Positions 2,878 through 62,943 are shown, counted from the first letter of the stretch. The stretch is 64,000 nt of DNA from Candidatus Olsenella excrementavium (GCA_019115965.1 DXCP01000016.1:6003-70002); one strand, 5' to 3'. Notes: generated from the letters alone by a model not told the origin. Numbers and translations are program-made.

Positions 2878-3097
2878 TCCGGGAATCCCTGCTCTTGTCT
2901 CGAGCTGTTCTAGAAATCGCCGCACTTGTTTGGCGAGAAGGACCTCGGATCGGACAAACCCCTTGATTTTCGGGTTAATTCTCGCCAAGGCTCCTCGTTT
3001 TTAGACGCGCTGGCTGAAAGTCGGGATTTCCTGGAGCGCCCGGCGGCAAGGGGGACGATTTTTAGAGCATCTCATGACAAGGGTGGCGATTCCAAGA
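2878..3097. repeat. Family B palindromic array, orphan copy B1 (2 forward + 5 inverted 22-bp units)
   Basis: Units like TCTAGAAATCGCCGCACTTGTT and GACAAGGGTGGCGATTCCAAGA, 9-bp spacers, 22-bp centre 2931-2952; one unit is 21 bp and degenerate. Confidence 0.85.
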
Positions 3098-25368: not shown

Positions 25369-25558
25369 TCCAGAAATCGCGGACCTTGTCATGGGGGTGT
25401 CTAGGAAATTGAGGGCTTGCGCGCCGGCGGCTCGTCAAAGCCGTGAAAAACCCGTCTTCTGTCGTCCAGGGCAGGACAAGAGCGCGGTTTTCTAGACTCT
25501 CTCGGGACAAACCTTCGGATTCTTAGAAGCCCTCATGACAACGCTGACAATTCCTGGG
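25369..25558. repeat. Family B palindromic array, orphan copy B2
   Basis: Forward units at 25369, 25400; inverted at 25475, 25506, 25537; one decayed unit keeps the 31-bp register. Confidence 0.8.
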
Positions 25559-36448: not shown

Positions 36449-36462
36449 GCGCGAGCCAGCAA

Positions 36463-36572
36463 TACGCGATTCCCAACGAAATAGGGCCCTGAAACGTTGG
36501 AAAACGCGTACTGCCAATCGGCAATACGCGAAAACCAACAGAATCAGGGCCAGAAACGTAAGAAAACGCGTA
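36463..36572 (+). repeat. Family A element copy A2, 14 bp after the nuclease-like gene stop
   Basis: Same 16/16/16/14/16/16/16 geometry as A1 and A3. Confidence 0.9.
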
Positions 36573-36598
36573 CTACGCGCGGGCGAGAAGAACGTGCG

Positions 36599-37579
36599 CT
36601 AGCCGCGCTTGCGCCCAAAGAACGACAGGATCGGCAGCCGGCCGCGATACGGACTGACGAAGTCCTCCTCGCCGATCTGCTCGGACTCCTCGACCTCGGG
36701 CGAGACGCTCTCCACCACACCGTTGGGGACGTCGGCCACGGGCATGTCGGTGATGTCGGGCACGACGGTGGCGACGGGCGTCTCCTCGCCGGTGGCCTGT
36801 GCGGCGGCCTCGGCCTTCTCGCGGTAGCGCAGCATCATGTCGCGCTGCAGCTCAACGACGCTCGGCGGCGCCCAGATGAGCGCGTTCGCGCCGGCGGCGA
36901 CCGTTGCCGCGGCGGTCTCGTCATCGCGCCCGCCAGTGGCGATGATCGGCAGCGCGGGGAAGGCGGCGCGCAGCTCGGCGATGACCTCGGGCGTGCGACG
37001 CCCGGCAGCGACGTTGATGATGCGCGCGCCGGCCTGGATCTTCTCGGCGGCCTCGTTGTCAAAGCGCGTGATCGTGGCGATCACGGGGATGTCCACGGTG
37101 GAGGCGACCTGCGCGACCATCTCCGGCGTGGCAGGGGAGTTGAGCACCACGCCCGCCGCGCCCTGCATCTCGGAGACAGCGGCGAGCTCGGCGGCGCGCC
37201 GGCCCGTGGTGGTGCCGCCGCCCACGCCCACGAAGAGCGGCGCCTCGGCAACGGTGAGCAGCGCCTGCGTGATGGCGGGCTGCGCCGTGAACGGGTAGAC
37301 GGCAAAGATCGCGTCCGCGTTGGAGTTGCGGATCGCGGCGACGTCGGTGGAGTAGAGCAGCGTCCGAATGCGGCGGCCAAAGAGCGTGAACCCGCTGCAC
37401 TCCTCATAGTTGTCCGGAACGCGCAGCGGCGCCTTGCGCAGGCGGCCCTCGATGGGCGCGGGACCGTCCGCGGCGGGCACCAGCTCGTGCGCAGCAAGGC
37501 CCACCTCAAAGATGCCGGAGCGCAGTGCCCCGGAGACGCCCTGCTCGGCAATCTCGTTCTTCTCGACGCTATCCTGCAT
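36599..37579 (-). CDS. TIM-barrel hydrolase/PEP phosphonomutase-like conserved protein with acidic C-terminal extension
   Basis: STDVA.IRN.NADA..AVYPFT.QP, GVGGG.T.G, ATGG. Confidence 0.7.
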   Translation of the reverse strand: MQDSVEKNEIAEQGVSGALRSGIFEVGLAAHELVPAADGPAPIEGRLRKAPLRVPDNYEECSGFTLFGRRIRTLLYSTDVAAIRNSNADAIFAVYPFTAQPAITQALLTVAEAPLFVGVGGGTTTGRRAAELAAVSEMQGAAGVVLNSPATPEMVAQVASTVDIPVIATITRFDNEAAEKIQAGARIINVAAGRRTPEVIAELRAAFPALPIIATGGRDDETAAATVAAGANALIWAPPSVVELQRDMMLRYREKAEAAAQATGEETPVATVVPDITDMPVADVPNGVVESVSPEVEESEQIGEEDFVSPYRGRLPILSFFGRKRG

Positions 37580-61060: not shown

Positions 61061-61281
61061 TCCAGAAATCGCCGCCCTTGTCGCCGGACCCTCTAGAAAA
61101 ACCTGCCCTTGTCCGGTGCCCGTCTCCGAATCGCCGCCCTTGTCTGCTGAGCTGCCCTCTGGTTCGCACAAGGGCGGTTTTCTTTAGAACACTGCGGGAC
61201 AAGGTCTGCGATTTCAAGACGGCCCGCTGACAAGGGCCGCGATTCTTAGAACACGTGGCGACAAGGCCGGCGATTTCCGGG
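61061..61281. repeat. Family B array B3 (3 forward + 4 inverted), 13 bp from stop of nuclease-like gene
   Basis: Units at 61061, 61092, 61123; centre 61145-61166; inverted at 61167, 61198, 61229, 61260. Confidence 0.92.
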
Positions 61282-61294
61282 CGGCCCCGTTAAC

Positions 61295-62380
61295 CTACGC
61301 GAGCCCGTACGCATCGAGGGGCACAACCTCGGATGACGGCTCCTCGGGGAGGCTGTCCGCCGTCCGGCGCTCCCGATCACGGCCGTTCCAGTGGATGCCG
61401 TCGATGAGCTCGAGCTCGTCGTGCAGCCATGCTCGTCGTATCCGCCGTCGCAGTGCCTCGTCGCGGGTGAGGTGGGGCGGACTGACGCCGAGGTCGGAGC
61501 GCGCCCGCGCGACGATGTCGTCCATGTAGTCGAGGTCGTCGTAAAGGCTCTTGGTGAGAACGTAGTTCTTGAAGTCCACCGCGAGCATCTCGTTCTGGCG
61601 GCGCGCGTCGCGCTCGAAGGCGTCGGGGGTCCTGTGGATGCCGCCGTTGTAGTCGAACGAGACCCCGGAGAACGGCGCGTGCACGTTCGTGGAACCGAGA
61701 AGGACGTCCGGCTTCCTGGTTCCCGGGCCGAGCGCGGATCCGATACGCATGACCTCGAGTGGGGCATTCATGGAGAGGACTCTCAGGTGATAGCCGCCGA
61801 GCGCCGGCTTGAGCCCGAGGCGCATGGAGAGGCGCGTCTCGTAGGGCGATGCGGACCGCTCGCATGCGGCGGAAAGCGCCGAGCGGACCTGCGCCGTGCC
61901 GGAGACCGGCCCGAGCGCGTCGAGATGGGCGAGGACGCGCTCGCGCGTCGTGAGCGGTTGGCGCCGACTGAACATCCCTTCCTCGTGGTCCGGTGCGATG
62001 GCGTAAGTTCCCAGAAGCTCTCCGAGGAGGAAGATGACCTCCAGCCGGGTGAGCGAGGGTGCCATCTGGACGACGAGGTGCTCGGGGGAGGAGCAGTAGA
62101 TGTCGTTGGAGAGCCTGATTGCGGATCCGGCAGGAAGGGCCACGCGCGAGCGGTGCACGCATGCGAGCCGCGGCGAGACGGCGTGCCCCCTGCGCGCGGC
62201 GCTGACGTGCAGTGGCAAGGAGAGCTGCGGGAACTGGTCGAGGACGGCCATGAGCTCGGGCTTGCCGGGAGACTTCTCCGGCAACGGGACGGTCGCTCGC
62301 TCGCCGCGGTCGAGCAGGCTCTTCAGCGCCATGCTTCTGATGACCTCAAGTGCGGTGGTATGTGAGAGCAGGACTGACAT
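61295..62380 (-). CDS. AbiEi-like/DUF559-like putative nuclease (family B-associated)
   Basis: LSHTTAL, CSSPE, SASPYET, LGGY, RKPD, FDYNG..H, RDARRQN. Confidence 0.65.
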   Translation of the reverse strand: MSVLLSHTTALEVIRSMALKSLLDRGERATVPLPEKSPGKPELMAVLDQFPQLSLPLHVSAARRGHAVSPRLACVHRSRVALPAGSAIRLSNDIYCSSPEHLVVQMAPSLTRLEVIFLLGELLGTYAIAPDHEEGMFSRRQPLTTRERVLAHLDALGPVSGTAQVRSALSAACERSASPYETRLSMRLGLKPALGGYHLRVLSMNAPLEVMRIGSALGPGTRKPDVLLGSTNVHAPFSGVSFDYNGGIHRTPDAFERDARRQNEMLAVDFKNYVLTKSLYDDLDYMDDIVARARSDLGVSPPHLTRDEALRRRIRRAWLHDELELIDGIHWNGRDRERRTADSLPEEPSSEVVPLDAYGLA

Positions 62381-62618
62381 GCATACACCGTATCGCAGGC
62401 TCTGCGAGATTCCCGCTCATCGGAAAAAAGTGATTCCCCAACTGGCGGCAAGTTGCTCTCTGGCTTGCATGGCAGAACATCTTCCCTGCTCATGGGACTC
62501 ATCTCAACTTGTGAGGGCCACTGTGACGTCGTTTTGCTTCCTACGCTCGGCCGGCAAAGCGCCCCCGGTCGCCGGATGCGCGAAGAATCGCCGTCCTATT
62601 TCGTCTCACGAGGGACCA

Positions 62619-62839
62619 TCCGGGAATCTCCACGCTTGTCACGACCGCATCTAGAAAGTCGAACGTTTGTCGTCAGGCAATCTAGGATTCTTTGGCCTTG
62701 TACGGAGAAGTGGCGTCGTGTGCGTACAAGGGCTGCGTTCTCTAGAAACAACGGCGACAAGGACAACGATTCCAAGATCGGCCGAGGACAAGGTCGACGT
62801 TTCTTAGAACGACGCCTGACAAGGATGGCAATTCTTAGA
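62619..62839. repeat. Family B array B4 (3 forward + 4 inverted), upstream of nuclease-like gene
   Basis: Units at 62619, 62650, 62681; centre 62703-62724; inverted at 62725, 62756, 62787, 62818; partial GATAAG in register at 62849. Confidence 0.92.
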
Positions 62840-62857
62840 AGTTCAGCCGATAAGAAA

Positions 62858-62921
62858 CGCCCGCCGACGTTCCGGAAGGAAGTTCCGCGAAGCGCACTTC
62901 CTGGAGGAACGTCGGCGGGCG
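62858..62921. terminator. Long hairpin after ABC gene
   Basis: CGCCCGCCGACGTTCC...GGAACGTCGGCGGGCG. Confidence 0.55.
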
Positions 62922-62943
62922 TGGGTCGCTCGTGGGGGCTGGG

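Follow-up and report, generated by a model that had tools for sequence, protein, structure and literature searches.

In the REP/REPIN-RAYT systems of Proteobacteria (REPtrons), the gene occurs in single copy, is inherited vertically and lies between copies of its own dispersed intergenic repeat, several such gene-repeat pairs share a genome, and repeat family and protein co-diversify (PMC3116915, PMC3337134, PMC3479197). These features recur at the locus described here, a nuclease-like gene bracketed by two phased repeat arrays in a 64,000-nt stretch (the window) of the genome of Candidatus Olsenella excrementavium (GCA_019115965.1, DXCP01000016.1:6003-70002). A coupling of the gene's family to its own repeats, close in logic to that of RAYTs and REPINs and outside that family, is strongly supported by the comparisons below, and the association of these nuclease-like proteins with lineage-specific repeats is very probably specific. 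The enzyme has a PD-(D/E)XK fold of the Vsr/DUF559 type, whereas RAYTs are HUH Y1 (IS200/IS605-like) transposases; the repeat, here called R1, forms phased arrays of bipartite duplex sites and not GC-rich hairpins with a GTAG or CGTC tag; and R1 copies in one genome lack spacer similarity, unlike the near-identical members of REPIN populations.

Parts of the arrangement have parallels elsewhere. The Vsr, DUF559 and EDxHD homing endonucleases have in common with the present protein their fold (Z 8.4-9.6) and an acidic/histidine pattern, (D/E)YxGxxH...DxxR, but the gene studied here has no mismatch-repair or intron context, and its nuclease domain is fused to an AbiEi-C-like domain. The latter (residues 1-173) resembles the C-terminal domain of AbiEi, of the type IV toxin-antitoxin systems (6y8q), and Rv2827c (1zel). 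AbiEi binds inverted repeats beside its own gene; in contrast to AbiE, the model of the present protein has no visible winged-helix N-terminal domain, and no AbiEii nucleotidyltransferase toxin gene lies next to the window gene, whose neighbours are a DUF308-like gene and an ATP-binding cassette (ABC) transporter gene. Tn7 employs a PD-(D/E)XK nuclease and carries 22-bp protein-binding units in three and four copies at its two ends; the present locus differs from it in having no TnsB-type DDE partner, in units that point the opposite way relative to the gene, and in a gene that is not mobile. Transposable elements of the miniature inverted-repeat type (MITEs) and foldback elements are, like the arrays, short, non-coding, intergenic and overall palindromic, present or absent between relatives and sometimes nested side by side, but here there is no cognate insertion sequence with a known transposase and no clear target duplication, and only motif positions are conserved. 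Insertion sequences with MITE derivatives differ in turn, as the present family has no near-identical gene copies (paralogues in this genome are at most 57% identical to each other) and its orthologues are syntenic. A reading as a CRISPR array was rejected on geometry, since CRISPR repeats are direct, identical and 24-48 nt long, with unique spacers of similar length, a leader and cas genes, whereas the units here are 22 nt long, vary internally, are separated by 9-nt spacers and are set in two converging halves.

The nuclease-like gene and its R1 arrays

The window corresponds to C52:6003-70002 of a 1.80-Mb draft genome with 66.5% G+C (genome label G000). The nuclease-like gene is an open reading frame of 361 amino acids on the minus strand (61295..62380), with a 221-nt R1 array on each side that comprises three forward units, a 22-nt centre and four inverted units. 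A first-pass annotation of the window had proposed this layout, and a genome-wide weight-matrix scan confirmed its coordinates: the downstream array (61061..61281, no strand assigned) has forward units starting at 61061, 61092 and 61123 and inverted units at 61167, 61198, 61229 and 61260, and the upstream array (62619..62839, likewise without strand) has forward units starting at 62619, 62650 and 62681 and inverted units at 62725, 62756, 62787 and 62818. The downstream array lies between the stops of the DUF308-like and nuclease genes, 15 nt past the former and 13 nt before the latter. Between the start codon and the upstream array lies a unique 238-nt stretch (62381..62618, minus strand), presumed to be the promoter and leader of the nuclease gene; the comparable stretch at homologue loci measures 60-350 nt. 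Just outside the upstream array, a hairpin with 27-nt arms that are 89% complementary (62857-62922) is probably the terminator of the ABC transporter gene (62944-64878, minus strand).

The R1 unit is 22 nt long and of the form TCTAGRAA-tcgccGcc-CTTGTC. With 9-nt spacers the units recur every 31 nt, and the two innermost units are 44 nt apart, start to start. The pattern TYTAGAA-N9-CTTGTC, allowing at most two mismatches, matches 20 times in the window against 0.42 expected from shuffles. Over the 1.80 Mb the weight-matrix scan finds 28 R1 arrays of 6-8 units, all with the same geometry and in one register. Both gene-free copies listed in the first-pass annotation were located: one (2878..3097, no strand) lies downstream of a tRNA gene and has an exact GGCGAGAAGGAC in its centre, and the other (25369..25558, no strand) has two forward and three inverted scored units, one unit having decayed. 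R1 arrays occupy all kinds of intergenic gaps, often 0-30 nt from the neighbouring genes, and some stand in adjacent pairs with no gene between them (C14:74462, C14:87775 and C57:21014/21486). The two arms of an array are 72% complementary, with the pairing coming from the motif positions alone and the spacers unpaired. A reading of the arrays as RNA hairpins was set aside, the arm spacers not being complementary and Rfam finding only tRNAs in the window.

Flanking repeats and fold of the protein family

A marked enrichment of repeats beside these genes is evident from the comparison of 54 homologue loci in 25 species of the genus. For each locus the 600 nt upstream were compared with the 450 nt downstream, a shared repeat being scored at 35 bits or more, and 250 length-matched genes of this genome served as the control. 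A shared flank repeat is present at 44 of the 54 homologue loci (81%) and at one of the 250 control genes (0.4%; Mann-Whitney p 9e-24), as a REP/RAYT-like arrangement would have it. The layout is constant: a repeat, a unique leader of 60-350 nt, the gene, and the repeat again 0-40 nt past the stop codon. Among more distant homologues, which are 25-32% identical and include other families of the order, six of 19 pass the same test. Chance bracketing, with about 0.6 bracketed genes per genome expected from 28 arrays in roughly 1400 gaps, was considered and dropped because the paralogues and the 44 of 54 homologue loci have the same layout with other repeats.

About 30 families can be distinguished among the flank repeats, and each also occupies some 10 to 60 further intergenic sites in its genome. 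Protein clades and repeat families co-segregate, as the first-pass annotation had anticipated, in that all nine of the nine multi-member repeat families are monophyletic on the protein tree; paralogues and orthologue groups likewise carry distinct dispersed repeats, which agrees with its suggestion that each paralogue has a repeat family of its own. Dimers of the R1 unit occur in six of the 25 species (0 for a reversed-pattern control), and the same six species, and no others, hold an orthologue that reaches 74% identity. All five related species with R1 arrays have them both upstream and downstream of the orthologue (74-92% identical), with unit numbers at the gene that vary between species, e.g. 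3+4, 4+3 and 6+3. This genome has eight paralogues of the window gene. The two closest (51% and 47% identical; C14:51345 and C39:4220) are flanked on both sides by other dispersed repeats with about 10 sites each, the one by units like TCCTGAAAAGCGGCGACTTGGCA and the other by a 99-nt double hairpin around GAATTC, and a 40% paralogue (C1:9362) adjoins GAACCCAAACC hairpins, a repeat family found at 28 sites. Many families have a common unit grammar, namely a GAAATCG-like block, 4-6 free bases and a lineage-specific block of 6-10 bases, such as CTTGTC, ACTTGGCAG, CTGTGGCAC or GTGTACCGGT; some sister families are simple palindromes, as is the GAACCCAAACC hairpin.

Three further observations concern these paralogues and repeats. 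The dispersed hairpins GAACCCAAACC-N7-GGTTTGGGTTC lie at C1:10394-10659 and at 28 other sites and are often followed by the 12-mer GGCGAGAAGRAC. The 51% paralogue (C14:51345-52352, of the R2 clade; L002:1501-2570) has an apparent frameshift near codon 335, in a G run, with the conserved tail VPVDAYGV in another frame, and may be a pseudogene or an assembly error; its orthologues in G014 and G002 are intact. The 12-mer GGCGAGAAGRAC itself matches 50 times in the window with at most one mismatch (1.3 expected; for example at 2612, 2932, 6669, 34357, 36582 and 41792), and over the whole genome 282 copies are exact and 1134 nearly so, where a reversed control gives 66. Both strands carry it, with an enrichment of about 3.5-fold in intergenic DNA; in some places it is paired as a palindrome, and its surroundings are not conserved. 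It is found within many array centres and within repeat families of other species, and resembles the conserved half of the units; a DNA-uptake-like signal and a site for another paralogue are possible roles. As a mark specific to these loci it was rejected, its density being 1.9/kb in the flanks and 1.1/kb in all intergenic DNA.

The 361-aa protein has 114 homologues, bearing the names Olsenella and Thermophilibacter, two of which carry DUF559 protein names in UniRef. The protein itself has no Pfam or NCBIfam match. When 29 family members were compared with Pfam (threshold membership being tested against PF04480 or PF18741), two matched DUF559 (best E 0.031) and six matched MTES_1575 (best E 0.0011), all below threshold, and a few reach AbiEi_1, also below threshold. 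A single-sequence AlphaFold model, with a predicted local distance difference test score (pLDDT) of 36, was set aside for an alignment-based model with pLDDT 90. In the latter, residues 178-299 match the catalytic domain of the homing endonuclease I-Bth0305I (3r3p; Z 9.6, 95 of 98 residues, root-mean-square deviation 2.6), the DUF559 protein NGO0050 (3hrl; Z 8.6) and Vsr (1cw0; Z 8.4), with 93-108 residues aligned across the three, and residues 1-173 match the AbiEi antitoxin C-terminal domain (6y8q; Z 8.1); there is also a weak match to the TnsA fold (Z 5.6). A Foldseek search of the PDB with the model returned nothing at E < 0.001, and a profile search of PDB sequences nothing meaningful. 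At the level of the model, these matches confirm an AbiEi-C-like domain at residues 1-173 and a Vsr/DUF559/I-Bth0305I-like PD-(D/E)XK nuclease domain at residues 178-299; the AbiEi/DUF559-type assignment made from the sequence is thus borne out, as is the view that no HUH transposase is involved, given this fold and the lack of a Pfam or NCBIfam match.

The alignment of the 29 homologues has the conserved pattern SASPxE...RKPD...(D/E)YxGxxH...DxxRxNE, in which E181, D225, H249, D258, R261 and E264 do not vary and position 242 holds D or E in every case; the putative catalytic residues are among the invariant ones. Residues 26-97 are the most variable part of the protein, with a mean identity of 27-34% against 58-64% for residues 98-215. 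Nearly all family members end, after a variable linker, in a conserved C-terminal peptide, VPxEAYGL (residues 353-361), which may be a docking motif for a partner.

The first-pass annotation had also named a second protein (35333/35402-36448) as a distant relative that sits beside a different dispersed element, and both claims stand in part. By sequence it has no detectable relation to the 361-aa protein (BLASTP E 0.6; hhalign probability 0.4%), but a language-model look-up places both in AbiEi-C/DUF559 clusters. The dispersed element is present in the downstream spacer (36451-36600), with nine partner sites, and is missing upstream.

Inheritance of the genes and turnover of the arrays

Where two proteins of the family are at least 64% identical, their genes are nearly always syntenic to left and right; the genes have thus long resided at fixed loci and are not hopping elements. 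Orthologues down to 52% identity remain at one chromosomal locus. The R1-locus protein is 92, 80, 63 and 52% identical in four species, where the adjacent DUF308, ABC and UbiB proteins are 72-100% identical, so that it evolves faster than its syntenic neighbours (e.g. 80% against 93-98% and 63% against 72-96% identity). The family is a fast-evolving, vertically inherited one, found in one genus of Atopobiaceae-type Coriobacteriia, and its synteny and vertical inheritance fit a domesticated, RAYT-like role better than that of an active transposon.

In G005, the syntenic orthologue (63% identity) is framed not by R1 but by R12, a related but distinct family with a 41-nt phase, the pattern TCCCGGAATCG...CTTCC and units like TCCCGGAATCGGCGGCCTTCC. 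R12 dimers number 31 in G005, with a few in G010 and G024, and are absent from five of the six R1 genomes, G000 alone having a single match with one mismatch. Thirteen R12 sites of G005 can be mapped onto G000: five of them share their gap with an R1 array (C1:20529, C57:21014, C26:3520, C5:6562 and C52:73298), in addition to both gene flanks, where about 0.4 would be expected by chance, and three others are clean empty gaps of 9-59 nt in G000. The arrays are thus positionally old, yet their sequence and also their phase conform to the resident protein lineage. Because a 31-nt phase cannot become a 41-nt phase by point mutation, the arrays must have been rebuilt or replaced. Arrays often lie side by side, so a plausible route is that new-type arrays are seeded beside old ones, which then decay. 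At the gap in G010 that is orthologous to the C52:73298 array (L092:2293-5590; G010:C1:1256793-1260090), two R12-type arrays lie on either side of a 2.9-kb pair of ABC-transporter genes, for an ATPase and a permease, which G000 does not have.

Other sites are conserved. Both gene-flanking R1 arrays stand at the same place in five related species, and the gene-free array at 2878 is orthologous in four species, G004 keeping one unit and the 12-mer; the metagenome orthologue L009 has the upstream array and lacks the downstream one. Such differences are signs of turnover, as is the 94-100% identity, extending to the spacers, of the three arrays around the G005 gene. At another locus, the whole R2 module (array, gene and array; 1.49 kb) is missing from G007, where 17 nt separate the same two genes, and R2-type palindromes cluster within 10 kb of their gene. 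Conserved, replaced (R12) and empty sites are all found among the orthologous gaps, where the first-pass annotation had proposed a check for presence or absence of the gene-free copies. A search for target-site duplications found none that is convincing, the only hint being at the empty R2 site and none appearing at the R1 flanks.

When orthologous R1 arrays of G000 and three relatives are compared, motif positions differ by 12-15%, and inner-unit and spacer positions by 24-37% (Fisher p 8e-8 to 3e-16); the motif positions are under purifying selection, and the spacers drift. A 12.8-kb contig from a chicken-gut library lacks exactly 31 nt of the downstream array (61237-61267), i.e. one unit plus spacer, so that array length changes between strains in steps of one unit.

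Proposed mechanism and alternative explanations

The explanation that we favour, held tentatively and at a little short of an even chance, is that this nuclease-like family is coupled, lineage by lineage, to its own repeats, the protein binding them and the nuclease maintaining the arrays. The parts of this explanation differ in strength. The protein probably binds its own repeats; that the nuclease actively maintains or spreads them is possible, and on balance we lean slightly away from it. The protein would bind the bipartite units, of which one half is GAAATCG-like and common to many families and the other is specific to the lineage; the hypervariable residues 26-97 would read this specific half, and the 31-nt phase, which is three helical turns, would align the bound proteins along a single face of the DNA, so that they converge towards the 22-nt centre. 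In a more speculative step, the nuclease domain would nick or cut in or beside the arrays; repair or copying would then keep the arrays in the nuclease's own image, adding or removing whole 31-nt units, and an array might occasionally be seeded in another gap, often next to an existing one. In this picture the gene, placed between its two arrays, would be the partner that stays put, as the RAYT gene is among REPINs. In its broadest form, which we put forward with more doubt, this would be a protein-repeat symbiosis in Actinobacteria in which Vsr/DUF559-type nucleases, each recognising a bipartite site by means of a hypervariable module, write, edit and seed phased arrays of their own sites chromosome-wide, with the array population remodelled when the specificity changes, i.e. 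a counterpart of REPIN/RAYT on duplex DNA with an enzyme of unrelated type.

A literature search on DUF559 or Vsr-like proteins with flanking repeats found no description of such a system, and the first-pass annotation knew of none. To our knowledge, a resident enzyme that lives with its own repeat population is so far known only for RAYTs and REPINs; if the coupling is functional, the present family would be a second, independent case, and it would assign a role to the AbiEi/DUF559 genes of Actinobacteria, a very large family that is uncharacterised. In one genus, some 30 natural pairs of protein and site amount to a specificity series, each with a conserved half-site, a variable half-site and a hypervariable protein segment, from which a compact module for DNA recognition could be decoded and, later, re-targeted. 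That one repeat family has taken the place of another in the same intergenic gaps is a clear instance of concerted evolution of dispersed non-coding DNA in bacteria.

Several observations weigh against the favoured explanation. At ten of the 54 homologue loci no flank repeat is present, and these include the syntenic orthologues of G010, G015 and G001; the R1 and R2 repeats and their protein clades sit in one subclade, and their co-occurrence counts are confounded by descent; G007 is without the R2 gene yet keeps four R2 palindromes, its relatives having 5-11; and the Pfam scores for DUF559 or MTES_1575 lie below threshold. The spacers of different R1 arrays within G000 are no more alike than shuffled ones (mean 0.327 vs 0.327), and the R1 population is therefore old, with its motif held by selection and not recently copied. 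R1 arrays may accordingly be old, selected binding sites.

This last possibility leads to the best-surviving alternative, a binding-site regulon without mobility, which we judge unlikely on the whole while giving it serious weight. Here the protein would be a sequence-specific DNA-binding protein whose nuclease is inactive or otherwise used, and the arrays would be selected sites that serve the host, for example as terminators or insulators, in nucleoid organisation or in the control of neighbouring genes; the sites at its own gene would mean autoregulation, and repeat families would differ because protein and sites co-evolve. Purifying selection on motif positions in orthologous arrays, the conservation of array positions across species, the lack of spacer similarity between arrays within G000, the synteny and vertical inheritance of the genes, and the placement of arrays in gaps near gene ends and starts are all consistent with such a regulon. 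What it does not account for is the change from a 31-nt to a 41-nt phase at the same site, which point mutation cannot reach, nor the existence of clean empty sites and of near-identical G005 arrays with identical spacers. The putative catalytic residues of the protein are, furthermore, invariant, and for a housekeeping function it would be unusual to have 6 to 14 fast-diverging paralogues in a genome, each tied to sites of its own.

It is improbable that the module of array, gene and array moves, or until recently moved, as an autonomous element, with the nuclease as transposase, the arrays as its ends and gene-free arrays as MITE-like derivatives. The absence of the 1.49-kb R2 module from G007, with borders that coincide with the outer edges of its terminal units and with what may be a 9-nt duplication (GAGCCCGGT / GCGCCCGTC) at that site, would suit such an element, as would the inversion of the module between species at two loci and the weak TnsA fold matches. 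Orthologues down to 52% identity nevertheless stay at one chromosomal locus, no genome has two alike copies (paralogues in G000 reaching at most 57% identity), no duplication is seen at the R1 flanks, and each flank is a complete palindromic array and not half of one.

Still less probable is that the repeat is merely a target, with a homing-endonuclease-like gene having moved into or between repeats that were already there and that it recognises, in the way that some insertion sequences occupy REP sequences. The best structural match is indeed to the I-Bth0305I catalytic domain (Z 9.6), and arrays are often paired with no gene between them, but the genes are single-copy per lineage and syntenic across species, and the repeat family changes with the resident protein at many dispersed sites, which a passive target would not do. 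A programmed inversion of the gene by its flanking inverted repeats, as an on/off switch, is very improbable: DUF559 genes are 14-fold enriched among predicted inversion targets in a table row of a published survey (PMC9881135) and the module is inverted between species at two loci, but no invertase gene lies nearby, nearly all orthologue pairs have the same orientation, the contigs over the locus (the only data of this kind considered) show no strand-changing joint, and dozens of gene-free arrays would be left unexplained.

Sequence libraries provide a few further observations on the locus. In one DNA contig, a junction of 61252 with 62942 was considered as a module-free variant and rejected as too weak, since only 24 letters lie on one side of it. 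RNA-library contigs cover the nuclease gene, with DNA carry-over as a possible source. Public runs that contain the stretch of the window are chiefly chicken-gut and bird metagenomes.

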